This document shows positions 16,900 through 46,800 of a stretch of DNA of 64,000 bases, piece after piece. Made by a program: the position numbers and the translations under genes. Origin of the DNA: Amoebophrya sp. A120 (taxonomy: Eukaryota; Protista; Dinoflagellata). Where the stretch lies: assembly GCA_905178155.1 (NCBI GenBank), contig CAJINV010000002.1, forward strand, positions 9,249,412-9,313,411, written 5' to 3'. The stretch's first letter is position 1, and each line of letters opens with the position of its first letter. The notes under the pieces are model-generated. The model was not told the origin of the DNA. It did not search any database and worked only from the letters and a program-made list of their open reading frames with translations.

Positions 16900-17163
16900 C
16901 GTTTCTGAGTGTCTCTGACTGTCTCAGGCAGCTTGTCAGTCTGCCGGCCGCTTCATATTAGCTACACACAGTGGCATTCCCATTCGGCGTTTTGTCTGTG
17001 CGGTGTGCGGCAACCCATCACGGCAACGTTTCTGTGTCCCTAATCCCGCTCCGGAATTAGTGGCCGCAGTGCGCCGCGGTGCATATTTATAAACACATCA
17101 TGCGAATTTGCTCCTTGTCCTTGTGTTCATCGTTGTACTGCTGTCCTCCGCCAAGATTTGATG
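16900..17163. repeat. Diverged non-coding repeat, copy 2
   Basis: Homologous to ~12400-12655; both copies lie just upstream of a uL16m start codon. Confidence 0.65.
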
Positions 17164-17327
17164 TGACCTCCCGTGTTGTGGACTTTGACCTGGCCGACCA
17201 CACCATGGCTTGTTGGTAGGTGTTTCTGACAAATGTTTTTGCACAGCAAAGCGAAAGCAATAGTGGTAGAAGTCCTCATCCACCTCTCTCTCTTCTGGTT
17301 TAACATCCACAGCAGCTAGTAGACAGC

Positions 17328-19593: not shown

Positions 19594-22500
19594 ATGGGCA
19601 AGAAAAAGAAGGATAAGAAAGACAAAAAGAAGAAAGACAAGAAGAACAAAAAAGACAAGAAGGAGGACAAGGAGGAGAAAAAGGTCAAAAAGCCGGAGAA
19701 AAAGACCGAAAATGTCAAGAAGATGGAGAAGATTGAGGCGCGCAAGCGCCAGGAGTGGAAGGATCGTGGCGTTGCGCACTTGGGCCAGGTCCCGCTCTCC
19801 CAACGCGGACAGGGCAAGAAGGCGAGACTGGAGCGGTCCTCTGCGAAGGGCGTGCACGACGAGTACACGATCGGGTTCACGATTCACGAGGTCCGGGACA
19901 TGCTCACAAGTGACGGAAAGGCGATCGACCCGTTGGTGGTGGTGCGGTGCGCGGGGAACACGTATGTTTCCCAGAAAAAGGAGCACAAGCGCGACCACGT
20001 CTCCTTCGAGGAGTCCTTCACCTGGTCGGCGATGAAGATGATGCAGAGCCAGTTCGTAACTCAAGTAAAAACGTCCCCACCCCATAGTTGTCATGCAGAT
20101 TTGCAGTTGCAGCCAGATTTGTAATGCGCAACCCCATGAGCATGAGAGGCATTTCCAATCGCGTTTTTGGACTTTGTAACGCTGTAACCAGGATAAGTAG
20201 ATGGATTTGTGTTGCGGCTGTACTTCCTAAAGGGCACTACAATACAGAGACGAACTTGATGTCATTCTTGACTCCCACAGTCTGTTTATGTCATGCTTGT
20301 TGACCCCCAAAACTTCTCGATTTGTGTTGCGAGATCCCCATCTTGACTCTGGGGTGGGGACGTTTTTGCTCAGGATAGTTCGACGGCGCCTCGCTCCTGT
20401 TCGAGCTCCAGGCGGGGCGGATCTTCTGGGCGAACGAAGTGCTCGGGCGCGCTATTGTCAGTTGCCCGCTGGTTCGGTCCCGAAAGAACCACTCCTTCTC
20501 CCGCCGGTGGGTCGACATCCGCGACGGGATTCGGCACCGGGGCCGGATCTGCGTGTCCGCCACGTGCTACGCGTCCGGGGATCAAACAGGGATGGACAAG
20601 GAGGAAACGGAATCCGAAGGCGATATCGACGAGGCCATGGAGGATTTGAACAAGCTGGTGATCAACCAAGTGACCGACGCGTCGATCAAAGCGCAGATGA
20701 AGCTCCTATCAAATGTAAAAATGTCTGGGTCTGGAAGAGTGTAAACTTGTCATGCAGGTTTTCCATGACCCATGAGGTCTGGAATGCGGGCCCTAGCGTG
20801 ACAGAGTCTGTGAGGTCTCTGCCATGCCTATCCTGCATGAGAAACGCCCTCCAAACTTGGTCGAAAGTGGACAGCTTTTGGCACTCATGCAACACAGATT
20901 TCTGCATGATTCAAATTTAGCATGACGAGTTGCAATCTTCCAGACCCAGACACTTTTGCAATCCATAGCTCCGCCAGGCCTATTACGTCGTCGTGCAGGT
21001 TCACAGACTGGAGGGTCTTGGAGGTTTAGGTTTGAAATCGAGAAAATTCAATCCGTACGTGGAGGTTTCCTTCGCCGGCAGGCGTTTGCGGAGCAGCGTG
21101 TCGTTTCAAACGAAAAGTTGCAACTTCAACGAGGGTTTTCAGTTGCCCGTGATCACCCCGTTGTTTGATGATTCGATCGTGATCAAGATCAAAGACTACT
21201 TGATCGGGCGGAAGGACAAAGTGTTGATCCAGGGTATCCTGAGTAAAAACGTACCCACACCAGAGTCAGGATGAGGATTTTGCAACACAAACCTAGGAGT
21301 TTTGTGAGTCACGCATGACAAGTTGCGCTATGCAGTGTAGTGCAGGTTAGCAAGTGCAGCCGCATCACAGATTCATCTGCTCATCCTGTTCACAGCATCA
21401 CAAATTCCAAAACACGATTGGAAATGGCTCTCGTGGGGATGCGCGTCAAAAGTCTTCCTGTCTTTGCAAATCTGCATTACAACTCTGGTGTGTAAGTAGA
21501 CCATTAGCCTTCACAGATTGCATGAGCTTAGAGGCCCGACGTAGTCAGTGGCTTTCCTCGACGTTTTCAATTTTCACCTATTTCGTTCCTGTTTTGATTT
21601 TGCCTATTTCGAGTATCTAGATCGAGCCTCGGCGCCCTGTGTGCCTGGAGGCGCGTTTCACAAAAATGACCTGGCGAGGGCGCTTCGGGAAGACCCCGTC
21701 TGACCGTCTCACGCGCACACCTGAAGACGGTAGAGGAGTGGCTCGCGGGCTCGAGGCGGACGAGGAGACTAGCGGCCGCGATCCTGCCTCCGGCGCCGAA
21801 CCGGACTACGAAAGCAGACCAGGGCAGGAGTTCTGGAAAGGGTTAAGTTCACCATGCCGCCGGTCGATTAAGCAGATCGGGTAGGCTTCGGCAAACGGAC
21901 ACCAGCGCCAGGCTTCACGCGGATGCCCCCCAGCTCGCCCAAGCCAATAGCAACAAGCTCAATCGAGTCTTGTTCCCCAGCGCAATAGATGCGACGTAGG
22001 GGCGCACAATAGATGCGAGCTCAAGGCTTGGCATCGCTGGGGGAGATGGTGCGTTGCCCACGACACTGGAATACGCCCGCCGAAAGAACCGGCTGCGGTG
22101 TGGGCCGAGACCCTACGGGCACGCGCGAGGAGGTTACAGCGTCAGCCCTCGCAGCGACTTTCTCCCCGCGCTTGCAGCGCGTGGCCATGAAGTGACAGAG
22201 TCCTCCAGTGCTGCCTCTCTCGCATATCTTTCCTTCACTTGTCTGTGTAGATGAAGATGGACTTCGTCTTGCATAAAATATGTCCGCATAAAGAAGCCTC
22301 GCATTCTCCCCAGAGTAAGTAGCCGGAAGGTAGTTCGAAGGACATCTTAGGCATGCGCGCGTCGCTATCTGCCTCTGGTGTTTGCAGCCTTCTGAATAGT
22401 AACGTAATGGAGTTGTTGCCGCAGGTATCAGTATGGTAATTATAACTGAAGACCTGGACTTCTCCACTCATAGTGTTAGCGTGTTGGATGTGGGCGTGAA

Positions 22501-25500
22501 ACTGTTGGCAAAAGGACTAAGTGTTGCTGCGAAAAGTTAGGCTGGTTGTGAGACAAGTATGGTTGGTTGCGGATTTCGTATGGTTAGCCTTTCAGCTACG
22601 TTGCTGGATTTCGGGCCGGGTGTCCCTCGCTTTTCTTTATTCTCTATTTTCGATTACCGTATTCAACTTTTATGTCTTCCTGAAGGGCCGCATCCCTTCT
22701 AGTTATTTTCCTTCACCAGAGCTCCAGGTAGTTTATGCGTGATCCCTGGTTTTCCGACAGAGCACTGTCTTGCATGCGTCAGGAAAGCCGCCTTGGGTGC
22801 CACGGTACTTGAGGACGTGTTATATGTCTCGGGCGCACGTACATACTAGCCTGCAGGGACGGCGGAGCCGGAAAAAAATTGCGAAAAAGTGAGGAGTATG
22901 GCAGGTTGCGAAAGAGTATGGTAAGTGGCCGGGAGATGATGGTGATGGCACTTCGGTGTCCGCCTGACCTACCCCCCCTGCGTGTCAAGCCATCTGCGGC
23001 CTGGGGCAGAGGGGGGGGCAAAGTGTGCTGCAATTCCTTTAGCATTACAACTCTGGTGTGGGTACGTTTTTACTCAGGATACAGGGGCGGCTTTCCTTCT
23101 CCTCGCTTCGGAACACCACCCTGTCCCCGCGGTTCTTCAACTTCTACTCGTTCCCGCCCGAGGAGATCCACAACCCCGTGGAGTTCATCGCCCAAACGGG
23201 TATGCGGTCCGAACCGAACGAGTTTTTTGGCCGCCTGCTCCTGTCGGGCCGCGCGCAGATGCTGAGCAGGCTCGCGGAGTGCCAGGACGCAATGGTGATT
23301 CCCGGGGGCGGGCGCGTGGACGAGCCGCCGCAGACCCCAAGGAGGCTGATTTTCGACGTGTTCAAGGCGTCGGGGATGCCGGGAACGCAGATTTTCGTCA
23401 CGTTGAACTTCTGCGGCTATGCATTGCAAAAGTATCATACTAGTATAAATTGCATCACAAATTCTTTCAAGAAGAAAAATGGAATTTGTAATGCGGATTT
23501 ACCCAACAAGGGATATTTGTCATGCATGATAGCAATTACTACGAGTACGATACTTTTGCACAGGATAGCCGCCGAGTCTTGACCAGTACCAGCGCGGACC
23601 GGGTTTTACCGTCTGCGAAGTTGAAGGAGCGGGAGGCGGAGAAGAAAAAAGTCGAATTAGACGAGGACGAGCAGGTCGGGGAGCGGCACGCCGGAGACAG
23701 CAAGCGGGACGTGCTTGGCGAGGCGTTGAAGCAGGAGAAAAAGAAGAAAAAGATCATGGACGCGAACGACTTGACGGACAAAATTTCAAAGAAAAAATCT
23801 CGAAAGGGGCCGGAAATCGAGGACGAAACCACGTTTCAGCACCGGCTGGACGAGCTCGCGGACATCATGCCGCTGCCGGGCGAGTTTTTGTTCAAAGCGT
23901 CCGGCGGAAACATGGAGCTCCCCGTGATGGTCCCCGACGACGCAGACCAGCAGGCCGACGTGATCATCTCCGCGTACGCGCTGTTCCAGATGCCCGCCGC
24001 GGAATCCGCGGGAAAGAAGTTGTCCGACGCGGAGATGCGGAAATTCAAGCGGATCGGGTACCACCGGATGAAATACGGGCAGTTGCAAGACCACGAGAAA
24101 AACCCGGAGCGGCCGCCAATCTGGGTCCACTTACTCCCCATGCCACACTTACCGCCGTTGATCTCCCCCGGGGCCGTTTTGATCACGCTCGGCCACCGGG
24201 ACGGCATGAAGAGAAAAAAGAAGGAGGACGACGCGACGGCGAACGTCGAAGAGGAAATCAAAAAGCACGCACGGGGCATTGACTTGGTGCAGTTTGAGCT
24301 GCGGATGGGCCTGTGTTCCTGCCGCGACTTGGCCACACCCCGCGCGGACGGCAATCGGCCCAATCCGATCGTCGAGATCCAGTGCGGCGGGGAAACCATT
24401 CTGTCCGCGCAGAAGAAGCAAACGCACCAGCCGGTCTTTGTAGAAAGGTTGATTCTGGATGTGGAATTGCCCAAATCCCGAACCTCCAACCGCATGTCGC
24501 CGGAGCCGATCGTCCTCACGGTCTACGACACGCTGGAGCAGCCGGCGACCTTACAGGAGCTGATGCGCGCGATCTACCAGCCGAAGAACTTCATCTACGA
24601 GCAGGGGCGGGTGTTAGGCCAGAAGCTGTACCACGCGATGGCGGATTTGTTCCTTGGCAAGGACATGATGCGGGAGAAGGAAAAACAGATGAACATGACC
24701 ACGAAACTGCTTATCGGCCGGTGTTTAGCGAAGGTTGACGCGTTCACCAAACCCGGCCAGTCCACGAGGATCCGGCCGCAGTGGCTGGAACTGTATGGCG
24801 GGGTCAACAACCAGACGTGGGTCGGCGATATCCTGTTCTCCGCGGAACTCGTGCGCAAAGCAGACTCGAAGCTGATCAAGAAGACGCTGATGTCGCCGCC
24901 ACGAAAACCCTGTGTGGTCCAGTTCGCGTTTCGCAGTTTGAACGAGATTCCCCCCGTGGTGGCCGAGAAAAAGAACGCGGAGGGCGGAACCGACTTGAAC
25001 GTCCTGCAGCCGGTGCAGAAACCGACGCTCGTCATCGTTGTGCCCCAGTACAGCGAGCTCGCCACGTCCGGGATGGGCAACACGTTACGCGTCGACTGGG
25101 ACCGGACGCTCGCACCGAAACATGCGCGGAACACGCAGGATTTGACCAACCCGACCTGGGCCAGCGGAAACAGTTTGACGAATTTTGGCATGTTGGAGGT
25201 GCACGCTTTGTACGTCGAATTCCCGATTGACCCCATTTGGTGCCCGATCGCGGAATATGCACTGCAAAAGCATCGTACTAGTATAAATTGCATCACAAAT
25301 TTTTGGCTCAGCATGAAAAATTAAATTTGTCATGCTAAATTACCTAAGGAACCAGATTTGTCATGCTTGTCTGGCATTCATACGAGTACAATACTTTTGC
25401 ACAGGATACGGAAATCCACATGTACGACCGCCAGTACAACAACGTCTGGGTGGGTACGGGGTATCCTGAGGAAAAACGTCCCCACCCCATAGTTGTCATG

Positions 25501-28500
25501 CAAATCTGCATGCTGAAAATGTTTCTCATGCAAAGCCCCACAAGAAGCATTTTCTAGTCGTGTTTTGGCATTTGTGATGCTATGATCAGCATGATATGCT
25601 AGGTATGTGATGCTTCTGAACTACCTATTAACAGGATTACACTACGAGGACAAACTTGTCAAGCGACACAACCAAAGCCGGCTAATTTGTCTAGCAGATT
25701 TCCCATCTCGACTCTGGTGGGGGGACGTTTTTACTCAGGATACGGGGGCCATGAACCTGACCGCCTGCTTACCCTGGTGCGATTTCCCGGAGAGCGTGCT
25801 GAAATACGTAGAAGCGTCGAACTTGTACCAGATTCAGTACGCGAGTAACGAGGGTGCGGACGAGCTGGAAGTTTCCGACAGCGACGAGGACAAACGGCAG
25901 GCGCGGAGACAGCTGGCGAGGAACCGATTTTTGTTGGAGAAAGCGAAACAGAAGTACCTGTCCGAGGCGGAGAACGAGGGGGACATGAACCTGGAAGACG
26001 AGTCCGACATGGAAGACGTCGACTTCGTCGGCGACGCGCTCAAAGTGTTCGTCAAGTGGACCTACAAATGCCACGACGAGTACGACGATTATCTGAAGTC
26101 GCAGGGCCGGTTTCTATTGATGGAGGCGGAGGAGGAGTTGGAGCAGGCCAACGCGGAAATGGAAGAACGGAAGGTACCGCAAGCGAAAGTTCCAGTCAAA
26201 CCGAAGGATGGGAAAAAAGAGGCGGGAGCTTCGATTGTCGGGGAAACCCTCGCGAATGCTGCGGGGGCGTTGACGAAGTCGCTGACGAAGAGCGATGTTG
26301 CGAACGAGAAAGCGAAGAAGGAAAAGAAGGCGGGGAAAAAAAAGAAAAAGGAGGGGAAACACAAACTGAGTGATGACGGGGCTGGTGATAGCAGTGATAG
26401 TGGTAGGAACCCAGCTTCAGACTCAGCGGGGGGGATAAGAGAAGAAGACCAGCACTTCGGCCTGCAGGATACAGATGAGATGACTGATGCTGAGCACTAC
26501 AAGGCAATGGAAAAATTAGTGCAGCTACACTTGGACTCGAAGGTGACGACGAACAGTGCACTGAGTTCGCTGAACAACCAAGCAGAAGCAGGTCGTGTAG
26601 AAGGTGGGGTAGCGGCCGCGCCACGACCTAGTGAGTCACTGCTTCCGCCAGACGTCTCAACATCACATGCGCACGCAACTCCTGCAACAGCTACTGTCAC
26701 TGCATTAGGTCGCGAACTCTTCGAAAGCGTAAACAGAGGTGCTGCATCAAGAATTGACACTGAAGCAGTACCAGCCCCGGAGGTGGACAGCGACGAAGAA
26801 GATATTACAGTTACGAGTGGTGACAGCTCTGTTCTTGAAGAAGGCGAAGACGACGAGAGGCTTGGGGTTACTGCAGCCGCAGGAGGCGAAGATGGTGTGT
26901 TGGACCCCTACGAAGAAAAAGAAGACACCTACCGAAGGAAGATTCTGGATTTCCTCGTGAACGGCGGAGCCTGTCCCGATTTAGAAGAGGATGTTGACCT
27001 TTCGCCGTCCCCGCGGGCACAGGGGGACGATGTAGTTCTTTTGCAAGGCGGACAAACCGCAGAAGACGCGGAACACAGAACCGCGGCTGCGTTTTCTGAA
27101 GAAGATGAGAGCTTCAGTGGGCTTCTACAGAACAAAAACCGCGCGGCCACGAAGGTCAATGCACTGTCGCCGCCACCGCCTCCGCCTGTGCCGCCGCATT
27201 TGCTCATGAAAAAGCCGGTCAAGAACTTTGCAACGAGGGGCTCGCGACGAGCAGAAGAAAAAAGCTTCGGAACAACAGCTAAGGTTCTCAGCCTGCCCAG
27301 GGAGGAAAATATCAAAGCGGGAACTTTGAAAGTTGACAATAGTGATTTCCTTCTCGCTCAAGTCGCCGCCATCATCAACGACCAAGATGAAGCTACGGCA
27401 GCTTCTAAAGCGTCGCTCAGCATCGATCCGACCGCAGCAGCTCTCTCGCCCGCGGACCACGAAGTAGATCATGCCTCCGTTCCGCGGGAAAAGTTAAAGC
27501 AGGGAAGTGTGAAGAAGGTGGCCTTTCCCTCGGCGCGGAGAAAAGTAAGTGCGGCTATGAGCAACGCAGCGTCTTTTGAGGATGAGGATGCTGCTCTCGA
27601 CGATGATTTTCGAGAGCAAGGTGGCGATGCCGGTTCGAATTTCAAAGTGCCCTATCTGTTCTATCCTGACGATGATGTTGAAAACAACTGTGCGCCGGAA
27701 AATACCGAACCAGAAGCGCAAGGAGCCAAACTCTCCAAGGCCGGTGGCGACTCTAGTTCCCCTTCTGTCGCTGCGTCAGGAGAAGAAGAAATTTCCGAAG
27801 ATGACGAGAGCTCTGTTTTGCTCTCCTCGGAAAGTGACGAGAGTCAAGAGCTGAACACCAGCGACATTGACATTGCGGAGTTCCTTCCCTCCAGTCCCTC
27901 GAAGCCGCCGGTCCGGAATTTCAAAGTGAATGAGAACAGAAACAGAAGAATAATAGCTTCAGCATCCGAGGACGACGATATGGGGAATAATGTGCCATCA
28001 TCTTCCTCCAGCGACAGAAGCGGCAAAAGAAGCAGCTCCAGCGAAGATTTTTCAACGAGCAGCGAAGACGACAGCGTTTCCTCGGACGATTTTGAAAAAA
28101 TGGAAACGCTCCCGACGAAGGACGTCATCGCGCGGGATAAATGGCAGCTGTTCCGCGAGGCGTTCATGACGGACGGGGAAGAAAGGGAGAAGTTACTGCT
28201 CCAGTACGAAAAGTGTGGAACCGCTCCAAATCTGTTCAACAGCAGCGAGGACCTCGGGAAGGTGGGGTTTCGTGCTGCGGGTGGCGGTTTATTGGATGGA
28301 CCGTCTACTTCAAGGGTGAAACCCGCGCGCGGAGATTTTTCCGATATGTTCCAAGGCGGTCCTGAAACGTTTTCGGAAAGAAGGCATGATATTACGGTCG
28401 TGTCTAGCGATGAAGAGAAAGACGCCAGTCCGGATCTCCGGGAAGATCCAGGGAGACATCTTGACGCCGATCAAGCTGCAGACGGGCTTCTTCAAAATAA

Positions 28501-31500
28501 GGCTGCCACTGTTCAGCTCGAAAAGAAGGACGACAGTACCATTGTGAAACCCAAATCGCACAGCACACTTCAAGAAGTACTAGAGTTACACATGGATAAA
28601 GGCGAAACATCTATTAACGAGCAGAACGTCGACGCTAAGAACAAACACGAAGAGCACGGTCTTGACCTTGCGGATAAGAACAGTGAGCAAGAGATCTTCG
28701 ATATGGACTACAAGATTCAGATTTTCAGCAAAGCGACGGAATCTTTCTCACGAGGCAGTAGCAAAAGACCTGAAAATGACAACGATTTGGAAGATAATTT
28801 TGAAGAAAGTGCTCTTGTTGCAGAAAGAGGAAAAGACCTCGAACTCGTCGATCAGCACGACCTCGATCACGCTTACGATGCCGAATTTTTGGAACAGTGC
28901 CGCGCAGGGAGTCTAGACGCACGGTTCAGGCAAAGCATCGAGAAGGATATCGACGTGGACCGAATGAAGCTATTAGCGCAGGAGGAACAAGAACGCACGA
29001 TGACCGAAAGTGGCGGCGTGGCTCCCGTGATCAACAACTTTGATTTTGACGAACAAGTTGCAAACGAGGACAAATACATCCAAAGCAGATCCCCGTTGCG
29101 CCTGAAGTTCAAAAACTACCACGGGAAGAAAAGCAGAAACGACAAATCCAGCGGGCCCTCATCATCGGAGGACTCGGAGGGGAGTAGTGATGACTCTAGT
29201 ACATCCTCCACCTCCAGCAGCGGTGGTTCAGGCTCTGACTCGTCAGGGGAAGGAGTGCGCGATGGGAGAAAGCGACCGTTCGCAGAGGATTTAAAGCACG
29301 CGCAGCCGGAGGAAGAATTAGTACGAGTGATTTCTAACCCTCCGGATGACTTGAAGTTCGTGCAAAGCTTTTCTCCGCCGAGAAGGAAACCTGCAGCATC
29401 TACTTCGCAGACCGCCTACGGTAGTCTTGCCGGGAAGAATTTCACTTCAGGCGGTTCGAAGCCATCCAACCTGTTTTCGACAAGAAATACCGGCACGGGA
29501 CAAGCATCTTCAAGGGGGTCACTTTCAAGTTCGAACTCAAAAAAGGATTCTCTTTCATCACCTTCAGCTGTTTCCAAGAAAAGCTGGCCGTCGAGGGCAA
29601 AGAAGAGTTTCTTCACTTCATCAGTGTTTTCCTCGTCGAAAAATAAACCGAAACTCGTGACGGAGCTCGTCGAGGGTGTCATGTCCGCGGATAACGCATT
29701 TACCCCACGAAACTCGAAGTCAGCGAAAGCTGATGCGAAGAGGGCCTTCAAGATGATCAAGCCAGACGGTGGCGCTCGTAGCAGAGATGATGTTGATGAA
29801 ATAAACGAGGTCACTATTAAGAACAGCAGTGAAGAAGAAGAATTCTTGAATCCAGCAAGAACGCCCGGGCCCGCCACGACTCTGGTCAAATCGGAACAAC
29901 AGTTTAAAGAGCCCTCTACGTCGCTTCCGGTTGGTTTGCGAAGCCGAGCAGGGGTGGACCACATCCCCGTCTCGCAACACGAAACGGAAAGTTACGCAAC
30001 CAGGAACAACTTGAGCAAGCGAGACGCAGCGCGCATGCTGATGGATGAACAAACGCGGCTGGAGCTGGATCTGCAGAACCAGGACTTTTCCCCGACGAAA
30101 CTGCGCGACGAGCTGGATGATAGGTTCTTGAAGCAAATCCCCGGCGCAACGCTGCTGACGGCGGAGGAGTGTGAGGAACAGATGATCGAAAGAAAACTCC
30201 GGTATTTGGAGAAGGTGAAAGCTGCGAACTCCTCTGGTGATAAGCGAAAAGGCACGACAGTGGGCAGTTTGAGTAGCGCTCCGCAGCGAAAAAATGAACC
30301 GTTAAACAAGCCTGGTCTTGTTTCACTTTTGTCATCTCCTGATACGGCTGGTAGAGGTCCTCGCACAGGAGTGTCGACGAAGCTGGCGACCATAACAGAG
30401 GAACCAACCACACCACTCGCGAAAGAGCGCTCCACGACTCTGCACTCCTTTTGGAGCAAACTTCCAAGAAGCGACGATGGAAAGACGGAGACACTATCGG
30501 CTAGAAGCTTCCCCTTTTTCAACACAGGCAGGAGCAGTGCTAGAAATGATACGGAAATAGTAAACAAAAGGACAACCGCTGTCAAATGTCCGGTGCGCTC
30601 GGTGGTCGAACGGGGCCTGAACGCGGACGGCGGTGAGGAGCAGGACAAAAACAGTTCGGAGGAGGCGAGGAAAAGTGCGAACCTGAAGCAACGAGCGGCG
30701 GAAGCTTTTACGCGGGCGAAACGGCATCCCCTCGTGGAAGAGGAGGATCTGGTAGAGGCGGAAAAGAAAGAACATGGAGAAAAATCTTCAGAGACAAGCA
30801 TCGCCGAAGAACGTCTGTTGAACGCAGAGGGCGAGCACCGATCAATGCTGCGGGAGAGTGCTGCAGAGGAAGACTTCGAAGAAGAAGATGATACAGATCC
30901 AGCAAATGAAAAATCAAAGAAAATTCCTTGGTGGTTGGAGGCGCAACACGAAAAAGATAAAGCGCAGGAGCGCGCGGTGCGGGAAAAGCACTCGAAGCCA
31001 GACCCGCGCGTCGTGCAAGTTGGTGAAGAAGATCGAGGACGTGCAGTCAGTTCTTCTGCGCAGCCGAGCAGATCCTCGGCCTCTTCTGCATCACAGGCAA
31101 CAGCGGAGTTCCGAGCGACATCAAGCCGTCCAGCAATGAAGCACGTGATGCCCTCGCTGAGAAAGCAGCTGTACTACGGGATGCAACCTGGGAGAAAATT
31201 GTTTCACCGCATGGCCAATGCCAGGAAGAAGTACAAGCTTGCGGGTCGGGACCATGTAGACAAGAACCTGAAGGATTATAGGCAGAAGTCAAGCTCAAGA
31301 CCTAAATCAGTGTCGTCAACACCTTCGCCAAAATCTACTAAACTTCTGTTCGAAGGCGCGCATCAAATGGCGGACCCCGCGCAGCTGCAACAGATGGAGC
31401 AGCAGTACCAGCAGCTGGTCGCGTATGGAGAGAAACAAGTTTGTCACAGTCACTAACTTGCAGGTTTTGCATTACAAATTTTCTCAGCATCACAAACTTT

Positions 31501-34500
31501 CCTTGTGTTGCAGAAACACTAGGGAAATCCCTAATAAAGTTTGGCTGTGATCATGCATTTTTACGCATGACAAACAATTTTGTATTTCAAGAATGCGCAT
31601 GAGTGATCGTGACGAACTTTTTTTCTTTGATATCGCGGAGTTCCAGCAGTTAGAGGCGATCGTCGTGAACGAACAGGGCGGGCAGCCCACACCAGAGCAG
31701 GAGCAGCAAGCAAACATGCTGATGCAGCAAGCCGGCGAAATGGAGCAGCAAATCGCGCAACTGCAGCAAGAGCTGGGCGGAGCGGGTGGAGGCGGTGCTG
31801 GTCCGCCGGCTGGTGGAGGTGGTGACGTGAATCAGCTGCAACAGCAACTCGCACAGCTCCAGCAGGAGTTCGCGCAACTGGAGCAAATTGTGCTCAATGA
31901 GCAAGGCGGACAACCAACCCCGATGCAAGAGGAGATGGCGAACAATTTGATAGCCATGGGCCAACAGCTGGAGCAGCAGATCGCAGCGTTGCAAGCCGGC
32001 GGGGGCGGCGGTGGCCCCGGGCCGCCAGGCGGTGCGGGGGGCGGCGGTGGCGGGGGTGGGCCGAGCCGGGCCGCGATCCAGAATGCGCAGACGCTCGAAG
32101 AAGTCAATGCGCTCGGGAACGAAGTCACCGCCAAGCAGCAGCAGCTGGAAGCTCGCGGCGTGGAACTAGAGCAGTTAGCTGCGCAAAACCCCGGCGGGGC
32201 TCCAACCCCCGAGCAGCAGGAGGAGTTTGAGCGCTGCATGGCCGAGCACGCGGAGTGCCTGGAGTTGCTTCAACAACTCGGGCAAAAGGCGGAGCAGCTC
32301 GCCGGCGCGAGTCTCGGTGCGATGGGGGAGGCGCAGCTGGCTGCCGCGGTGAACCAGGCCGAGGCGGAAGCCGCGCAGGCGATCCAGATCAAGCAGGAAC
32401 TGGATGTGAAATTGAAAGCGCTCGAAGAAGAAGGGGGTAGGCTCGCGAACCTGAAAAAACCGACCAAAGCGCAGAAGAAAAAGACCGTGATGATCCAGCA
32501 GCAATACAACCGGCTGTACGAGGCCCAAATCGAGCAAGTGGCGCAGTTGGACTATCTGAAGCAGAAAATTGTCCGGCTGAAGCAGATGCAGAACAGCTCG
32601 GCGAGTCAGCAGTTCCGGCTGCAGCTGAAGGAAGTGTACGAGCAGCAACTGGCAAACCTGGAGGGCATGCGGGACGCGATGGAGTACGAGATGCAGCAGA
32701 TGGAGCTCGTGCTCCCGGAGCACCAACAGGAGCTGAAGAACGTGAAGGACGAAATCGAGCGCCTCAAGCGGGACATGGACCGGGTGCAACGGGGAGAGTC
32801 GATCGATGACATGTACGAAGAGGACGGGGTGACGCTGAAGAAGAAGTCGAAGATATCCTAAGGAAAAATCCCCCCTCACCATATTGAAAAGGTATGTTTA
32901 GGAAAATTTGCGTTGCTGAGTTGAGGTCACAAATCACATTTGTCTTGCAAGAAGACAAGGGCAGAAGCTTCCGCCCCATTATGGACGCGATTTGTCATGC
33001 TGTTGGGCCTAAAGGGGAGCCGCTTGCCATGCTGAACAAGTAGACCCATACGCCCCTACCTAGCCTGGAAATCTGGCCGCAGTGCCTCCCTGCAATGCAA
33101 AGCTGATTTGTGTACGCAAATCCAGCATCAGAAGTTCCGTGTCGGTTACTCCGTTTTTTGGCCGTTTGCATGCGTCCCCACGTTGGTTTGTCTTGCGAGA
33201 CTCTCCTTTTCTAGTGGTGGTTTTTAGTTGTACCAGTGTAATGATGCCAGCTTTAGGGCGTTTTTATGTAATGTGGAATTAGAACTTGTTTTTTGGTAGT
33301 ACTCCTTTCTATACTTTTTTTGATCCCTCGGTGCTAGTGGGCACATTAGTACGAAGTTATTTCTACTCAGATAACAACACAGCTCTCTACGCCGCCTTCC
33401 CAGGAGCAGTTGTTGCTGTCTTTCGGTAGAAGTCACATCGTCCAAATAATCCTACTAGAGTTTACCGGGTATGTGGTTTAAGTTTTTTAGATATAGTCTA
33501 AACAGGGACGCCCAGCCCTTAGCCATCCAAAATCAGAAGTTCCGTTTTGATATAGGGAAGGGGGATTTTTCCTTTCGATAGAAGAAGGAGCTGGCGAAGG
33601 AAAAAGAACAGGACATCAACGAGAAATTCAACAGCGAGCAGGAACTGAACCTCGGCCTCGTCCTGGACGACGCGGTCGCCTGCCCCCCGCGGCTGAAAGA
33701 ATTCATGTCCCCGAAGTGGGAGGCGCGGTGGACGCACTGCAAACTGCAGCGCGGGGACCTGATCCTCGGCATGGGTCCGTCGCCGTCAGCCATCGTGAGT
33801 TGCGCGGCCATGAACGACAAGGGGGCCAAAGCGATGATCAACCAGCTCTCCATGAGTTGCTACCAGCAGCGGCCTATCAAATGTAAAAATGTCTGCGTCT
33901 GGAAGAGTCATGTTGTTTTTGCATGACACAGAAGGGCTGGCATGGAAGCTCTAGCATCACAGGTTTCGAGAAGCTTCCGCCATACCGAATCCGCATGACA
34001 AGTTCCCCATTTTGGTGACAGAAATTGGGCAGCTTTTGCTACCTATGCATGAGAGACTTTTCTGTGTTCTGAAATGCGCATCACAAGATTGCACTCTTCC
34101 AGACCCAGTCCCAGACATTTTTGCAATGCATACGGCCGATTTACCTGGAGCGGCGGCGCGTGCGCAGGGACGAGATCATCGTCATCTTCGAGGCGGGGGA
34201 TGAGACGAAGGAGCAGAAAACGCCGGAGTACAAACAGTTGTTGAAAACGGCCGGAAACTTGTTCAAGAAGCACATGACCAAGATCGGGCTGTTCTTCGTG
34301 AACGACAACCAGAAACCCCCGCGCGCTCTGAAGGACATGCACCACAAGTCCTGGTGGACGGACAAGGGCGTGGAGGCGGGGGCGAAGTTGGTTCTCGTGA
34401 ACGGGGTGAACGTCGAGGCGCTCACCTTCAAGATGTTGATGCAGCAGTTCGGGACCTTTTTCGCGCACGCGCGGCCGCTGTCCATGGTGTGGCGGACCTC

Positions 34501-38008: not shown

Positions 38009-39096
38009 GGGGTAAAATACTAAAGCAATGGTGTGAAAGTAAGTACCTAGAACTTCAGAGCACGGTGAATTATGTATGAGATGCTCCTGCGGAGAACAAT
38101 GATACTCTATGCATGTTAATGCAAAAAGCAAGCGAATAATTTACGATTGCACACGACGAAATTCAAATTTCGAAGTAGAAACTAGCGAGCAACTACGAAG
38201 CTTGATGGACATGAATGCTGCTGATGAATAGAAGGCAGAGCTAATGCTAGACGCGAAACTTTCTTGACGGCAACACAATCATTTGTGTAGGTACGGTACA
38301 GAATGCTTCGACTTGGCGTCATGTGAAAAAAAAGGCTTTCGGCGACGCAGCCTTGTGCCAAAAAGGTTTTCACATACCTTGGCTCGTGCATGTCAGTCCG
38401 GAAACGGATTTGGAAATTGTTCGATAAACAAGATTGGAAAAATCGTAAAGCGAGATCTTAAGCATAGTAGAGGCAAAATCCAGGAGTTGGAGTGATGCAT
38501 CAGCGAAAAGAAATGATGAACATTGTTTCAAGAAAACGAACTACGATGTGACTTGCATCCACACCCACGACTACCGATTCGGTTCCGCAAAAGTTCGGTC
38601 TAGACAGTAGCAAGTCATTATTGAGCATCGTAGAATCACTCTATTTGCAGTATTAACAACAAAGAAAATAAAAATGAGAAATTTTCTGATCAAATCTGGC
38701 TGCCACATTTGTTTCGTGTCGGCTTCGATTGTATTTGCATGATCCCGGATCAAGAGGAATACACAAACAGATCCAAAATCAATGTTTCCTGACCACACTA
38801 CAACAAAACAGAAATTGACCCAAGCTCCTTGAAAAATCCTCCGACTCTACTCCTTGTGTTGACACAACTACACAGCGGTCTTCATCTGTTTGAAAATCGT
38901 TTTTTTGTGGTAGTAAGTTCGACCACAATAAACTTTGACAAAGAGAAAACTGCTAAAAGCTGCAACTGCTAGTCCAACTACAGTATCCGCTTTTCGACCC
39001 GAAGTTATCTAACTTAAAGCCTTAACCGGTTCCTTTTCTGTTCAACACACCTTGAACTTCAACGTAAAACTTCCACGACTAGTCTACTCTCTGAAA

Positions 39097-39810
39097 ATGT
39101 CGTCCGCATCCCAACAGCAGCCTGCTACCCCTGTCTCAGTGCCGGTCCCGCAGCCGTCCGCTGCGCCGGCCCCGGCCTCCCAGCCGGTTGCTGCGTCGGC
39201 TCCCGTGCACCAGCAGCAGTCGACCTACGTTCCCCACAGCACCGCTCCGGCCCCGCAACAGCAACCCACGGCCCCGCAGCCGCAAACTACCTACGTTTCG
39301 GCCGCACCCCCCGCGCCCCCGCAGACCCGCTACGTCTACGCTCAGCCGGCCACTACCGTCGTCGTCGCTCCGGCGCCCGTGGTCGGGTGTCGCGACGATA
39401 CTAACCCTATCGGGGCCTTCGGCTGCGACAAGCGCGTAGAGCCGAACTGCTGCGTTTCCCTCTGTTGCCCCGGGTGCACGATCACGAACTATGAGGGGTT
39501 GAGCATCGCCGCCATCCTTGCCTGGATTCCGTTCTTCTCGATCGGGTTCTGGCCCATCTCCATCATGGGGTGCTTCGCCGCCTGCTGCTGGACCCCGCCG
39601 ATCTGGGGTGTGCACTACAACGTGAACCGCGCCAAGCTGGGTGCCCCCGTCCAGGCCGCGCCGGCCGGGCAGACGGTCACCTACGTCGCCGCGGGATCGG
39701 ACACGCAGGTGCTCCCGGAAGGCTGGGAAAACAAGGCGGCCCCGTTCCCCGAGTTCCTGCAGGAGGACGAGGACCTGTATTCTTCCTCGGAAGAGGAGCC
39801 TCTCGTCTAA
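39097..39810 (+). CDS. Small P/Q/A-rich protein with Cys-rich hydrophobic (probably membrane) segment, 237 aa
   Basis: Clean ORF with strong G/C third-position bias; CCVSLCCPGC followed by hydrophobic IAAILAWIPFFSIGFWPISIMGCFAACCW. Confidence 0.75.
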   Translation: MSSASQQQPATPVSVPVPQPSAAPAPASQPVAASAPVHQQQSTYVPHSTAPAPQQQPTAPQPQTTYVSAAPPAPPQTRYVYAQPATTVVVAPAPVVGCRDDTNPIGAFGCDKRVEPNCCVSLCCPGCTITNYEGLSIAAILAWIPFFSIGFWPISIMGCFAACCWTPPIWGVHYNVNRAKLGAPVQAAPAGQTVTYVAAGSDTQVLPEGWENKAAPFPEFLQEDEDLYSSSEEEPLV

Positions 39811-41486
39811 GAAAATCAAAATTTGTGATGAACAAAACGGCGAGGAGAGATTGCTAGAAGGAGACGTGTTTATACTTGCAGTTGAAAGTAGGATGAACTA
39901 CAACAAGAAGCATACAGCATGTACAATTTAGTGAAGATAATTGCGCATAGGCGTATTTTTACACGCGCTACGAAGGGTGAAACTTTGTATAGCTTCCGCT
40001 GGTATGATTGCGCCTTAGAAACGATTGCGCTCCACGGGGGCAATCACCCGTCGATGTCAAGTTATACTAAAGTTTTCCCGTTTTCGTTTGCACCTTTTGG
40101 AATATTTTCAACATCAAGAAAATCTTTACACTTTTCAATGGACGTCGGATGCTTTTTTTTTTCGTTTTGGAACAAAGGTGACGAGTAAGTACAGGAGTTT
40201 CTCAACATCATACATAGTGTTGCAACGAGTGACTGCTCGTACAGTCCCGAGTGACTTTTCGTACAGTCACTCGCTGCAATATGAGTCGACCATGTAGTTG
40301 TACTTAAGGAAATTATTGAAGGAGGTGTTTTTACATACGACAGTCTCAGTCACCATAAATACGAGCCTAGAAAGTAATACACAACCCTGATCCGCCCCGA
40401 TTGAAACGTCAAACCACCCTGTATGATGTAGATGATGGTAGGACAGCGTTGCTTCCAGCGTCGTTCTCAACGATCATCAAAAACCCCTTTTTCGGTTACT
40501 TGAGATGTCGTTTTGAGAGTCATGAAAAAAAAGAAAAACGAAGCAGCCGCTGCCGCCTTCGAGGCGGCATTTTACGGGTTAGTAGAGAAGCCCATGCTCG
40601 TTCCTCCAATATTCGGGCCGCGGGGATTCGGCGCCGCTAGAAAACAGAAAACAAGCCACGGGGATCGGGTGCTACCGCTAAAAAACTCACAAGAGGAGAA
40701 ACGGGAAACTCATTTGATTTCGGTTTTGGGTGTCCCCAGCTTCACCGTGATGGTGCTCTCGTGTTTGCGTAACATTCGCAAAAGGAGGCGCTCAACATCA
40801 ACCTGTCAAATCGTTCATCCTGCATTCTAGGGTCGTCTAAGCTTTCGTTGTTTGTCGTCTTATTTGGGTACTTTTAGTATGTTGTACTTAGGCATACTAT
40901 GTATAAATGGGGTTCAACATATCCTGGGTTAGACATCGCTCGGCGCATGGTATTGAGCTGTCGTCAATTTATCAAGCTGTCGGACGAGGTCAAATACCGA
41001 ATCGCTTTGCTAAGAAGAACAAAAGTTGTAGCGATCCCTGTGTAGAATTAGATAGGAAGACAAAACGAAACGTATGACTTTTGTCACCAGACTCAAGGTC
41101 TATTCGTTTTATGCTGCCTGCTAGTCGCGAAAGAAAAAAAAATGACAAGATCTCAGCACCGACCAGTACGCGATGCGGGGAGGTCTCTTCGCGAGGTGGA
41201 AACCAGTCCGCGACGGCGAATATGATCGTTTCGCGAAGATGTCGACCCTGACGGGCGACACGTTGACGAGTTTTTTCGGCGAAATAACTATGAGCATGTC
41301 GACACGGTCTACCATAGTAGCAACCGACGGCGTGGTGACCATGAAGATGATCATGTTGCTGAAGTAGAGACGAGTTTTCCTTCCCGACAGGACCATTCCG
41401 TACGTCGGCCTCAGAGTGCCCGAGCTCCCCTGGAGAGCCACGCATTGGTTGGGGAGGATCGTCGACGGCATCGTCAGCGCCGGCCC

Positions 41487-43331
41487 ATGATGTTCTACAA
41501 CGAGAGGTTATCATCTGGTAATATGGACTTCCCACATGAACAAGCAGACGAGTTTCATCGAGAACCTGTTGACGATAGAACTCATTTTTACCACGACGAA
41601 GACAACTTCTACCACAAAGATGGCGAGAATTTTGAAGATTACTATCTTCATGCCACCGACGAGGTGGAACTACAGGACATGGTCATGGACAATAACTACT
41701 ACGACGTTGCGGCGGAAGACAACACCTACAAGTCAACTCAGGGTGCTCGAGGAGAGCTGCCGCGGGCTGAAAATCCCGAAGAAGATGATGATGATCACGA
41801 GCAGGACACCGCCGGCGCCTTAATCCGCTACAATAATGTCGCGCGGGATATGGCGTTCTCAAACGTTACATTCTCAACTGTTACATGATTTGTCATGCAA
41901 AATGACCATAAGCCGCAAGACAATCAAGCTGCTCAGCATGACAAATTATCAAAGGGCTAAACAGCATCTAAATCCGTGCCAAATTTGTGATGCAAGACTT
42001 GCAAGCTTACCCCTTTCCCTATTGCTGTTTTTGCATGACGAATTCATGTAACAGTTGAGATTGTAGTAGTTGAGAGCGCCATACTGGATCTTTTGCAACA
42101 AATGCGGGTGAATTCGAACAAATTGAAAACCCTGGACCTCTCCGGCATGCTCTTCTCCAACGCCTTCTACAAAGAATTCGCGAATCAGCGAAAGCACAAC
42201 ACGAATCTGACCGCCTTGTACTTGAATAATTGCAACCTGACCGATAACAACTTGCGGCAGATCGTGCTCGGGGAGCTCACCGGGGATCCGTCGAAGCAGC
42301 TGGAGGTTCTGTCCTGCGAAAACAATTTCCTGAAAAACGTTTCTTGCTTCTACATTGCCCGAGCGCTCTGCGGGTTTGCGACGATCAAGAACAAGGTCAC
42401 TTCCGGCGCTTCCCGCGCATTACTTGCGGGTGCGTCAACCACGCAGACAAAATGGAGCCGGAGCCACGGTGGTAGAAATGCCTTGGATATCGGTGGGTCG
42501 AATGTGGCGAATAGGTTGAGGTATTTGTCCCTACGGAAAAATCTGATCAACGGGTCCGACGGGATCCGAATTCTGGCGGACGCGTTGATGAATGTGGACA
42601 AGAATCTGGAGGTGCTGAACCTGAGCGAAAACCTGATCGACAACTACGGCTTGGGTTGGATGGGCATGGTTTTGCGGAATAACAACGTGTTGAAAATGGT
42701 GGATTTGCGGGGCAACAGAAACGAGGGGAACGACGGGATTCACGAGATTCTGCTCGCGTGTGAGGCGAGTGACTGCAATTTGGTGTACGCAGATTATGCA
42801 GTTGACACCGGCGAACATCTTCAGGAAAGCGACAACGTTGCGCCGTCCGGCGACATGGCCGTCGCGTGTTTGGGGAAGCGGAACTGCACAGTTTACACGG
42901 ATCATCCATTCGGCCGACCTTCTGCACGACTCGCCCGGCAAGCCTCCTCTCCGGAGAAATTTTTCAAATCGCCCAAATCCAAGTCCCGGGCACCGGTACT
43001 CCGCTTCAAGCGCTCCTCCACCCGGCAGAATGAGTTTGAACCGGCCTCGATCATGAGCGAACGGGTTGCGAGTGATAACCAGTTCCGGGCGACCTCGAGC
43101 AGCATGTTGGAAAACAATTTCCCCGATTTCCAGCATTGGGGCAAATTGTTTCAGCAGAACGGGGAACTGGAGAGCGGAATGAAGGAAACGTCCCTGGGAT
43201 ACGGGATTAGCCGGTTGAGGTTCAAACCAGGAGTAGAGACGAGACCAAGAAGCTCGTCGTCTCCCACGAGAAGACCGAGGTCGGCGTCGGCCGTAAGTGG
43301 CGCGAGACCAGGCGGGATTCTACGGCGGTGA
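41487..43331 (+). CDS. Leucine-rich repeat protein (RNI-like); 5' end uncertain (frame open back to 41226)
   Basis: Repeats LKTLDLSG, LTALYLNNCNL, LEVLSCENN, LRYLSLRKN, LEVLNLSEN, LKMVDLRGN. Two ORFs join in frame across introner 41849-42083. Confidence 0.8.
41849..42083. mobile_element. Introner, family G (235 bp)
   Basis: ~54-bp imperfect TIR starting tatggcg; direct repeat cggga/ctgga. Confidence 0.88.
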
Positions 43332-43876
43332 GTGTAGAAGTTCGGAGTGGGTTCGAATTTGTTGAAAAGGGCGAACGCGGTGATTTTTCATCTCGGAAAC
43401 CTGCACGAAAAGCACAGCGACATCAAGCAGAGAGAGAGACGCATCGGAAGAGCTGCGCTTGTACTACAATGGGAAACCACGACATAGGAAGTGTGCCTCT
43501 TTCTGCTCGAAGATGTTCGCACAGTGTCCTTCGGGTTTGTCGTGCAATGCTCCTTCAAACGTCGCTTGTGCGAATTTCGCCAGTGCTACAAGTGAGTGTC
43601 TGCTCGTAGCTGAGACAAATCGAGAGATTTTGAAGAATTTGAGAGTGAGTGAAGTTAAATTTGGACGAGAATTTTTGCTGTGCAATGTGTCGCACCAATC
43701 GTCGACGTCAAAGGCTATCGCATACAGGAAGTATCCATCACGACGTGCAAGTTTAACATTTCTTTCTGTCACCGAAAAAGCAGGACGCACGGAGAATTGC
43801 TTTTCTGATGTTCTACTGCTACAGAAGGAAATAAAGAGTCAAACACAAACTCTTCGAACTAGCAACAGCAGAAACC

Positions 43877-46800
43877 ATGCCGGGCGGCGTCGCCTCCGCC
43901 GTGCTTCAGTCCCTGAATGGGAGCACCACCGTGATGTCCAGTATCTTTTCCGGTTCTTCTTCCCCCGAGGAAGCGCATTTGCTCCAGCAAGCCGGCTTCC
44001 AGCCGTCGCTTCCCTACCACACTGGAGCACCGGCGGATGAGGTGCTGCCAGAAGCGGGAAATAACGCGGAGCATGAGCACGATTCCGGGGAACACGACGA
44101 GCACCACGAGGAGCATGAGGACCACGAACATGAGGACCATGAGCACGAAGACCACGATATCTTGTGTAAAAACGTCGACGCTCCAGCCTCCAGGCTCATC
44201 AAGATGGGCACTTTTCTAGACAAGCCAGCATTTACTTTTGGATATCGCGCGTAACAAGAAGTTTAGGCTCGCAGTGTCGTCGCATTTAGCTATTGTAGCT
44301 GCATCACAAATCGATCCCTTTATCCTGATTCTAGCATGACAAACTGGCAGACAGCATTACAGAATCCTCCTCATGTGCGCTGCGCATGAGAAACATCTTA
44401 CTAGGCTTGCAGATTTGCATGGCAAGTGTGGGGCGGGGACGATGACGTTTTTCTTCAGGATACAGGAGCACGAAGAGCACGTATCCCACGAAAAAAGTGT
44501 TACAGTTACACATTTGCAGTGAATTCAGCAACACAAATTTCTCTGCATGAGAGAGAAAACTTGTAATGCAGAAATCCTACGGGAAAACACCTACGAAACG
44601 AGGCTCCTATACATATCCGGCATGACAGAGCTTGTCTGTCTTGCTTGGCCTGCAACACAACGCGTAACTGTAACACTTTTTTCTTGCGATAGCACGAGGA
44701 CGAGCACCATTACGAGGAGGAGGAGGAGTTCCACGAAGAGCACGAGCCGGAGGTATTACAATGAAATATGCCCCCACCCCCGAACTTGGTAGCATTTGTA
44801 TTGCAAACCTTCCAAAAAGAAAGAGAAACATTCGCCCTCTTGCATCTAGCAGCATCACAGATTTATTCCAATCGTGAATAGAAGCAAAAATTTGTATTGT
44901 AAAAGACGCCAGCAAGAGCGGCGCTTGGCATGCAAGCGATGCGATATACGACTAGACTCTGCATCAGAAAGATTCATATTTCTTTCATGCATGAGAAAAA
45001 GTGTTCATTTGGAAACTCAAACTTCGCATCACACATTCTCGCGTCCGCCTGACTCCACGACCTGGTGGCCGAACCATGTGCGGTAAGGTGCCCTTACAGG
45101 TTATGTAGTGGCTTCGGTCGGTTTAGCATCACAAATTCTTGCAACTGTGGAGGGGGTGGGGGCATTTTTCACTGTAATAGGTGCAGGAAAACGAAAACGA
45201 AGCCGGTGGAGCAGGTGGTGACGACCAGCAGGACGCCGAGGCGGATGGTGCCGGCGCCGAGAACGAAAACGAGGTGGAAGTCGAGGGCGCGGAGGAAGAA
45301 ATCGTGGAGGAGCTGGGGGAGCACTTGTCTTCCGAGGTCACGGTGCTGAACGGTCTGCGGATCTGCTTCGAGCAAGCGAACGAGGAGATCAACGAACAGA
45401 CGAAGAAGATCTACAAGAGGGTGGAGTCGGTGGTGGAGGTCGTGAAGGGCGGTTTTGGCCTGTTTAGTGGCGGAAAGGGCAAGGCGGGCGCGGGGGGAAG
45501 CAAGACGAACAATGATGCGGAGAAGTCAACAGCGGCCACTACGAGTTCCACTTCTGCTGGTGCGCGCCAATATGAAGATGGCCACACGTCGTCCCCCTCG
45601 TCATTTGGTCCGAATAGAAGCAAGACAACGTCAAAGAAGAATAAAGGGGCAGAGAACAAGCCAAGTCGTGGATCCAGCTTTGTCACCCCAAAGAACAGCA
45701 GCACTACTCGCCGCGGCAAAAAGACGAGCGCTTCATCTCTCCGCGAAGGATCGCAAAAGGAGATGAAGCAGAAGAAAACAACCAAAATCGAGGTCCAGCA
45801 AATAAAATTTGAGAACATCAACTTTACAAAACCCATACCGCTGCCGATACCACGACTTCCCGGATCAATTTCTACCTCAGGCAGCCCAGCAGTTCCGTAT
45901 TTGCCAGTTGCACCGACGAGCAACTTCTCGACGGCGCAGCCGGTAGTTAAAAATGGGGGTTTTTCCGTGCTGATGAAAAACAAAAATCTGAAAATGAACC
46001 CGAACGTGATCGATGAAATAATCGCTCATCCGAAAAGCTGCAAAACAGATGACTCCGATTTAAACTCCTCAACGACCACGACCCTCCTGGAGCAGCAGGT
46101 GAATGAAGGGTCGTACTCCGATCATTTTGGGAGTGCGCCTAGCAAGAGGATCAAGGCGCCGGTCAACACCAGCGGTGTTTTTAGCGGGGACGAGGGGCAG
46201 TATGAGCAGGACTTCGAATTCGAGGACGCGCAGCACGATATCTACGAAGAAATCGTGGCTGACGGGGTATTGAATTTGAACGGTACCAGTACTGCGAAAA
46301 ATACGCAGGAAGCGATGCAGGAACAACTGAAGAGCAAGAAACAAATCCGAGCAGGAGCAGCTGCACCCTCTTCTCCTTCGGATCAACTGCATCTTCACGA
46401 ACAAGTTCTGGTCACGAACCTCATCACGCCCGAACTTTTGGAGGAATTGATCCCGATCGGAGATGAGTTGAAGTACCGGCAAAGTCTGTACGGTGGGAGT
46501 AGTTCTTGCAACCAAAACAACCAAACCTACGCGAACAGCAACGGCGAGCTGAGTCCCGGATATTGCAACACGATCTGGAGCGTGGATGAGGCGAATGCAG
46601 CGGCGCAGATTACTCAACTTCCGCCCCTGCCGTTTGTTAGCAAATCGAACACGGTGAAGCAGTTGAGCCCGGACTTGCAACCGATAGGCCACTTAGTACC
46701 GAGGGGAATAGCAAGCACGCCGGAAGTTGCTGCGATTTTAAAGGGCGATCATTCTGCGGCAAACGCAAAAGACGACAGCGGGCGGATCCATAATTCTTGC

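Follow-up and report, generated by a model that had tools for sequence, protein, structure and literature searches.

A probable non-coding retroposon aimed at the 3' arms of introners in Amoebophrya

Elements that lodge within transposons or introns

Among the closest described systems is SINEU-3 of crocodilians, a non-coding retroposon that lies almost always inside the DNA transposon Mariner-N4_AMi. According to the relevant sections of PMC4494074, 77 of 88 copies are flanked directly by this transposon, the expected duplication is about 16 bp, and a target-specific LINE, Tx1-Mar, provides mobilisation in trans; that source treats Tx1 as an animal clade. In Xenopus, the non-LTR element Tx1L occupies a fixed site within Tx1D, a non-autonomous DNA transposon with terminal inverted repeats (TIRs), as a safe-haven strategy, and is itself autonomous, with an APE endonuclease and one target family (sections of PMC1950540, PMC6719617 and PMC4494074). 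LINEs typically leave duplications of 10-20 bp through a specific first cut and a looser second cut (PMC6895275, in the section cited). The stwintrons of fungi and other twintrons represent a different kind of nesting, with one intervening sequence within another; stwintrons, as far as our sources describe them, have an inner U2 intron that requires GT and AG and interrupts a splice signal.

Introner elements of the A120 type in Amoebophrya have inverted repeats that start with TAT and carry an A-run, 3-5 nt direct repeats and non-canonical borders, and their transposase and splicing route are open questions (PMC7789003). That study analysed introns of 40-1000 bp only and reports autonomous non-LTR retrotransposons in those genomes, and the parts of it on which we draw hold no account of an element targeting introners; the words "nested" and "twintron" do not occur in its main text. 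An earlier description of an introner-targeting retroposon was not found in the open-access literature either.

Here we describe inserts in introners of a 64,000-nucleotide stretch of Amoebophrya DNA (hereafter the window), whose hosts match the A120-type elements. We consider it likely that the inserts named B and F below are copies of one repeated, non-coding element, variable at the 5' end and with a fixed 3' end that bears a hairpin, and that they were placed at G/CATNACAA (slash, insertion point) in introner 3' arms, most plausibly by target-primed reverse transcription (TPRT) with the proteins of a site-specific non-LTR retrotransposon, and that insert D probably belongs to a second such family. 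Target-specific insertion inside a DNA transposon, a trait of the Tx1 clade, is seen in all six mapped copies and at 8-9 further junctions. Unlike those of SINEU-3, the targets are introners, which are spliced out of mRNA, come from at least four families and have a common sub-terminal motif, and no snRNA-derived head was seen in the three window inserts with Rfam; unlike Tx1L, the element has no detectable coding capacity and reaches many families. It differs from stwintrons in its variable 5' end, mostly not GT, and in an outer splice arm that stays intact through the duplication.

Oversize introners of the window and the relations among their inserts

Of the 23 best TIR pairs in the window, only three are oversize, namely TAT...ATA introners of 1847, 727 and 426 bp, and the remaining pairs span 150-322 bp; the three introners and their inserts are called B, D and F (Table 1).

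Table 1. Positions of host introners, duplications and inserts in the window
Feature	Position	Strand	Remarks
Host introner, family B, with insertion	21235..23081	+	TAT...ATA, 33-nt perfect TIR; flanking exon frame continuous after removal
5' duplication copy in B, 17 nt	21475..21491	+	starts at G/CATNACAA; exact match to 23043-23059
Long element copy (insert B), 1551 nt	21492..23042	+	mosaic of low-copy blocks and high-copy 3' end
GTAAGT...TCTAG segment, 129 nt	21492..21620	+	5' end of insert B; T-rich tract before AG
Block conserved with L002 copy	21621..22047	+	79-86% identity; repeated in genome
GT...CAG segment, 130 nt	21698..21827	+	present in B, cleanly absent from L002
High-copy 3' tail of B	22924..23042	+	85-nt hairpin module, homologous to F, at 22958-23042; ends TTAG
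3' duplication copy in B	23043..23059	+	motif and 3' TIR arm remain intact
Host introner, family D, with insertion	32854..33580	+	
5' duplication copy in D	33118..33140	+	degenerate
Insert D, 382 nt	33141..33522	+	T-rich; repeated elsewhere, greater depth at 3' end
3' duplication copy in D	33523..33545	+	
Host introner, family F, with insertion	44754..45179	+	
5' duplication copy in F, 16 nt	45027..45042	+	2 mismatches
Insert F, 84 nt	45043..45126	+	3' hairpin module alone; 95% identical to 3' end of 1323-nt L002
3' duplication copy in F	45127..45142	+	

The three inserts and their flanking duplications, first noted in a preliminary description of this DNA, are real; that description placed the ends of the duplications 21, 35 and 37 nt from the introner end; we measured 21-22 nt in B, 35 nt in D and 37 nt in F. 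Subtraction of the insert and one duplication copy leaves hosts of 279, 322 and 326 bp; the "exactly 322" bp of D is partly luck, as that host has offsetting indels relative to its two relatives. All three inserts read GT...TTAG on the + strand, which is the coding strand of the flanks. The duplication of B extends to 19 nt if the G shared on each side is counted, and that of D comprises 23 nt with 4 mismatches, 14 nt being exact. By eye, the D duplication can alternatively be read as starting at G/CATC (33126) with a 7-nt slip deletion.

The same description regarded the inserts as lacking mutual similarity, which was not confirmed. Along its full length, F aligns to the final 85 nt of B with a global score of 58, reached by 0 of 1000 shuffles, and this is the best-scoring place for F in the window, F itself aside. 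D had no significant local similarity to B and F (249 and 285 of 300 shuffles scored as high), and in end-anchored alignments 30 and 37 of 1000 shuffles did as well; it has register, end and target in common with B and F, and probably represents another family of this kind. In L002 (1323 nt), a copy outside the window, an F-type 3' end is combined with internal blocks that resemble those of B (79-84% identical). Sequence comparison places the inserts B and F in a single repeated family.

The 3' module of about 85 nt in B and F carries a covarying hairpin, in which 8 of 12 pairs change on both sides and 92% of cells are paired vs 45-60% in slid controls (five sequences of two subfamilies, the structure being derived from the same sequences). 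Folding of single modules was no better than that of shuffles (z of -0.3, -0.35 and +0.6), and the hairpin hence rests on covariation. Self-comparison of the B, D, F and L002 inserts gave no terminal direct or inverted repeats. Within B, the 130-nt segment is probably an intron that the spliceosome removes from the transcript of the element, and its clean absence from L002 would follow if that copy arose from spliced RNA. The 129-nt segment at the 5' end likewise resembles a canonical intron belonging to the element.

All frames of the B, D and L002 inserts, the longest copies, which may themselves be truncated, were devoid of reverse transcriptase or endonuclease remnants; against Pfam, 18 read-through frames gave nothing above the curated cut-off and three weak matches below it. 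An autonomous LINE would encode both enzymes, and the 18 frames yielded neither. In L002, a 104-aa frame had no match among longer proteins, and an 85-aa frame matched only two tandem-repeat proteins in phmmer, which we judged spurious. Rfam returned no match at E<=1 for the three window inserts and, on 21200-45300, one sub-threshold match outside them; viral contigs gave 0 matches. Helitrons and TIR transposons, as usually defined, were rejected, since the duplication is long and variable and the 5' end varies and lacks terminal repeats.

Target motif and copies beyond the window

A scan of the collection yielded three more copies, all at TTAG/CATGACAA in introner 3' arms: L001 (about 120-130 nt, with inverted filler and an imperfect duplication of about 7 nt), L002 (exact 17-nt duplication) and L003 (98 nt, 13-nt duplication). 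TTAG ends all six mapped copies, and the TTAG/CAT junction is exact in five, D having one extra C; the final G is also present in the target (G/CAT). Duplication lengths in five of the six are 17, 16, 23 (degenerate), 17 and 13 nt, with a fixed left edge and a right edge that varies over 13-23 bp. Target-primed retrotransposition is recognised by a fixed 3' end, a variable 5' end and duplications of this sort.

Contigs of the window's organism (DNA; X1, X3 and X4, one sample) pile up over the last ~120 nt of B. Summed contig depth, which is not copy number, is ~33 at 22056-22487, 120-220 at 22650-22919, 3638 at 22920-22973 and 1817 at 22974-23027, and in D it reaches 165-483 at 33386-33498 vs about 25 for single-copy DNA. 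Four contig joints lead from a target copy to 22925, 22950, 22952 and 22982, three of them with 5-7 filler bases, and among the loose ends listed five consist of the target motif (22920, 22923, 22944, 22980 and 22993). Together these make 8-9 further junctions with a common target motif, 5' starts spread over 22920-22993 and often filler bases; 22980 and 22982 may be one locus, and loose end 22928 (two mixed contigs, agreement 0.65) is left out of the count. Each contig junction displays one flank per copy, with loose ends as listed, so that copies outside introners could be missed.

The mapped copies, which sit in introner 3' arms, and the partial junctions all lie at G/CATNACAA, in line with the earlier proposal of staggered-cut insertion aimed at these arms. 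The motif has 77 matches in 8.2 kb of introners vs 11 in the other 55.8 kb of the window, an enrichment that marks it as functional for introners. All six mapped copies are sense to the host gene, while the sub-terminal motifs are sense in 11 and antisense in 15 of 24 window introners; the chance of six in six is about 0.6% at the 11:15 ratio and 1.6% at 50:50.

Sense orientation is what a splice signal would require, and it is one of the observations in favour of twintrons, that is, of each insert being a GT-AG spliceosomal intron removed before the outer introner. The GT...AG ends of all three window inserts, the GTAAGT that opens B and the pyrimidine-rich 3' end before AG in B and D point the same way. 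The GT start fails as a general rule, however, as it is found in none of L001-L003; GT is readable in 3 of 9 contig junctions, through microhomology only, and in 3 of the 12 new junctions (L001-L003 and contigs), compared with 18% by chance. A GT start is not required, given that copies without it persist, and the AG is the element's fixed end plus the G that the target also has. On 20900-33900, the raw RNA runs X8 and X9 had only 3 and 4 reads, and contig runs X5 and X6, guessed to be RNA, had zero cover over the unique part of insert B. The 15 contig joints listed out of 589 were all DNA joints between introner ends, and the joint from 21491 to 23043 was not among eight further contig joints; at such cover, these counts weigh neither for nor against nested splicing. 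Removal of each insert as an intron of its own is, in our opinion, very unlikely, and the inserts are probably not introns-within-introns: the unrelated canonical introns proposed at first give way to a repeated family, B and F, with TTAG as fixed terminus and scattered 5' ends, mostly not GT.

Routes of insertion and their meaning

In the retroposon model, a first nick of the bottom strand at the motif would prime reverse transcription at the element's 3' end, synthesis would often stop early, and a second, less precise nick 13-23 nt downstream would give rise to the duplication. The duplication would leave the whole motif and the TIR arm at the intron 3' end, so that splicing would still remove the enlarged introner, making the insertion near-harmless. 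A 3' poly(A) or simple-repeat tail is common, though not universal, among non-LTR retroposons, and a poly(A) or tandem-repeat tail is absent from all six copies. Against this model also stand the GT start of all three window copies, a reverse transcriptase partner not found in the inserts and the uniform sense orientation, which a plain DNA-sequence-specific endonuclease does not predict.

Alternatively, breaks at introner ends, for example by the introner transposase, might be repaired by synthesis-dependent copying from an element-bearing introner, leaving partial copies with filler. The filler and inverted templated bases at 5' junctions, the insertion position near the TIR and the numerous B-family hosts would all agree with this. 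The B/F element, however, occurs in unrelated introner families (F and the 41849-type host of L002; B), the flanks remain host-specific as far as the TTAG junction, every duplication is a copy of local host sequence, and one copy (L002) precisely lacks the GT-AG segment, and we regard such DNA-level copying as highly improbable.

A variant of the retroposon model involves RNA guidance: the element would be transcribed in the host pre-mRNA, and the downstream target copy in the excised introner RNA would pair with the nicked target and prime reverse transcription, or a 3' attachment resembling reverse splicing would take place. Such priming would result in tail-less, exact 3' junctions and sense orientation, as seen in the mapped copies in spite of the motif orientations in the window, and the duplications are imperfect in D, F and L001. 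There are only six copies, however, loss of antisense insertions through selection, or a nick in the transcribed strand, would produce an equal bias, age also fits the imperfect duplications, and priming by a co-transcribed flank explains the 3' junction and not, alone, the orientation of new insertions; we hold this variant to be rather unlikely. As a broader speculation, offered tentatively and at low confidence, a tail-less retroposon may live only inside spliced-out introners, recognise the sub-terminal motif of all introner families, insert only in the sense-strand 3' arm, and be expressed from host pre-mRNA. Excised introner RNA would carry it free, and the 3' arm of that RNA would guide priming at a new target; TTAG may double as spliceosomal acceptor. 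If this tail-less, introner-bound reading is true, a transposon life cycle would run wholly through another transposon's intron behaviour.

In the retroposon reading, the element is a hyperparasite, a transposon on a transposon, and its target doubles as an intron, perhaps the safest niche that a compact genome offers; one targeting specificity would reach many introner families through the common G/CATNACAA motif. Oversize introners with an intact 3' arm represent natural experiments on what the removal of non-canonical introns needs; should copies of 1.8 kb prove to be spliced as well as those of 280 bp, removal does not depend on short TIR spacing. An alveolate reverse transcriptase/endonuclease, new and site-specific, would be the missing partner.

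Finally, decay of the duplications tracks decay of the host TIRs, with 0 mismatches and a TIR of 26/26 in B, 2 and 24/26 in F, and 4 and 22/26 in D. L002 departs from this trend: its duplication is exact and its host TIR is 22/26, as would fit recent insertion into an old host.

Inserts in the oversize introners

The window carries a eukaryotic gene cluster lying almost entirely on the + strand, as a crude codon score indicates for 23 of 24 introner flanks, and it is dense in elements of 150-322 bp whose borders are TAT...ATA inverted repeats plus short direct repeats. These elements match the Amoebophrya A120 introners of the accessible text of PMC7789003. Aligned to its relatives, each of the three oversize introners is an ordinary family member broken near its 3' end, and once the B and D introners are taken out whole, plus one direct repeat, the exon frame is open. 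All three inserts run GT...TTAG, and after each comes a copy of the host sequence from just upstream, as the preliminary description had reported. The feature is real, but its interpretation as nested canonical introns (twintrons) has mostly been replaced, and the element failed the donor site test; we consider it likely that the inserts represent a target-specific retroposon that parasitises introners.

Inserts in the window and at three further loci (L001-L003)
Copy	Host introner	Insert	Length (nt)	Duplication
B	21235-23081	21492-23042	1551	17 nt, exact
D	32854-33580	33141-33522	382	23 nt, 4 mismatches
F	44754-45179	45043-45126	84	16 nt, 2 mismatches
L001			about 120-130	about 7 nt of target, with target bases copied in inverted orientation, ahead of the element
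L002	fourth introner family		1323	17 nt, exact
L003			98	13 nt

The inserts had also been called unrelated; no significant similarity to B or F was found for D, but the other two are related. The F insert aligns over its full length to the final 85 nt of B (equalled by 0 of 1000 shuffles), and L002 combines an F-type end (95%) with B-like inner blocks (79-84%), thus joining B and F into one family. The terminal modules of B and F adopt the same hairpin fold, with folding alone no better than shuffles for either; across five modules, both partners are altered in 8 of 12 pairs and much less pairing is seen in slid controls, a covariation that provides modest evidence given five related sequences. 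With B and F, D shares the target motif and, at 83 nt, the GTCC...TTAG register; its insert also occurs in repeated copies, with greater depth toward the 3' end. Degenerate tandem units (TTGGCGAA or AGTATGG-like) lie directly upstream of the 3' hairpin at 22500-22945 and at 1810-2000 of L002. In addition, a 1164-nt contig of one public run (X6, guessed to be RNA) spans 22584-22953 with 800 additional bases and may lead to a master copy.

Further copies and their 5' starts

The sources of genome-wide evidence were public-run Logan contigs and a single collection scan, in which a pattern of motifs common to B and F yielded three loci in a metagenome collection. These belong to another assembly, with introners about 70-80% identical to those of the window, and all three lie in an introner 3' arm and end in TTAG followed at the junction by CATGACAA. 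Copies in the same organism were sought by mapping DNA contigs to 21462-23066. Summed contig depth, about 33 in the unique middle, rose to 120-220 across 22650-22919 and to 1800-3600 in the last 120 nt; it does not equal copy number, but the step to the last 120 nt is nonetheless roughly hundredfold. At four of the eight listed joints the target copy passes directly into the high-copy 3' tail of B (at 22925, 22950, 22952 and 22982), three times with 5-7 extra bases, and among the listed loose ends at least five have the introner motif immediately ahead of the tail (22920, 22923, 22944, 22980 and 22993). These are at least eight to nine additional insertions at the same motif with differing 5' starts.

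A GT start is consequently no rule: L001, L002 and L003 begin with GA, TT and AT, and GT is readable, by eye, in three of nine contig junctions, each only via a shift within microhomology. As this total of 3/12 compares with 18% expected by chance for random truncation in the tail region, the 3/3 of the window is best taken as a chance run, and GTAAGT of B may be the genuine donor site of a first intron within the element.

Target motif, strand and mechanism of insertion

The target motif is present in all 24 window introners and occurs 77 times in their 8.2 kb versus 11 times in the other 55.8 kb, four of these in one unlisted repeat; the copy used lies 39-58 nt from the introner 3' end in 6/6 mapped insertions. 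More generally, GCA(T/A)N(A/G)CAA is an internal motif common to all introner families, repeated on both strands of the 24 introners, usually with a copy 39-63 nt inside one end or both, and is a candidate binding site for a transposase or splicing factor. Several introner motif copies also occur in a high-copy repeat at 31450-31600, between two long ORFs, where no TAT...ATA pair was found.

Relative to the host gene, all six mapped copies lie in sense orientation, whereas sub-terminal motifs in the 24 introners are 11 sense and 15 antisense, a comparison whose pattern does not cover D's degenerate motif. On this ratio the chance of an all-sense outcome is about 0.6%, a figure limited by small n and by the weakly supported strand of one flank in both L001 and L002. 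The bias could reflect selection against antisense copies, template-strand nicking, an RNA-guided step or a splicing role of TTAG.

Target-primed reverse transcription typically leaves 5' truncation and filler bases. Such a process would be the source of the insertions, as suggested by the fixed 3' junction, duplications with a fixed left and variable right edge, 5' truncation and filler bases; the accessible text of PMC6895275 gives duplications of 10-20 bp and a first cut more specific than the second. L002 lacks, with no residue, the 130-nt GT...CAG segment found at 21698-21827 of B, which again points to an RNA stage or, alternatively, to intron gain in B. Canonical-looking introns thus lie nested within the element rather than constituting it. 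Recognisable coding was not found in the inserts, so enzymes must be supplied in trans; autonomous non-LTR elements are reported in such genomes in the accessible part of PMC7789003, and in that of PMC12130899 four introner families of A120 bear the label 'non-LTR'; an introner-targeting element is described in neither part. The duplication regenerates the motif and the TIR arm, and the outer intron would therefore remain removable.

SINEU-3 in Mariner-N4_AMi and Tx1L in Tx1D work in the same way, as far as the accessible parts of PMC4494074, PMC1950540 and PMC6719617 go. The element here differs in aiming at introns, in reaching many families via one common motif, in its strand bias and in lacking a poly(A) tail; its likeness to the Tx1 clade lies in insertion behaviour, with no protein found. 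No earlier description was found in the open-access literature; subscription papers, Repbase reports and supplements could contain one.

Other features of the window

Two very long ORFs (25595-31456 and 45181-47724; 1953 and 847 aa) matched no Pfam family, and a sub-threshold SNORA57 Rfam match within a long ORF (27916-28032, - strand; 25 bits, cut-off 40) is probably due to chance. Family B introners occur in both orientations inside + strand genes (20064-20377 and 25462-25742 versus 21235 and 50309), as expected of DNA-level insertion, and the copy at 20064 is without a complete left TIR. Micro-exons of about 19, 52 and 62 nt separate introners (44158-44462/44482-44691, 17715-18036/18089-18400 and 44691-44754, respectively). 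The stretches 12603-12888 and 17107-17441, 4.5 kb from each other, have two short repeated blocks in common (54-57 and 124 bp), the longer of which looks like a duplicated coding exon.
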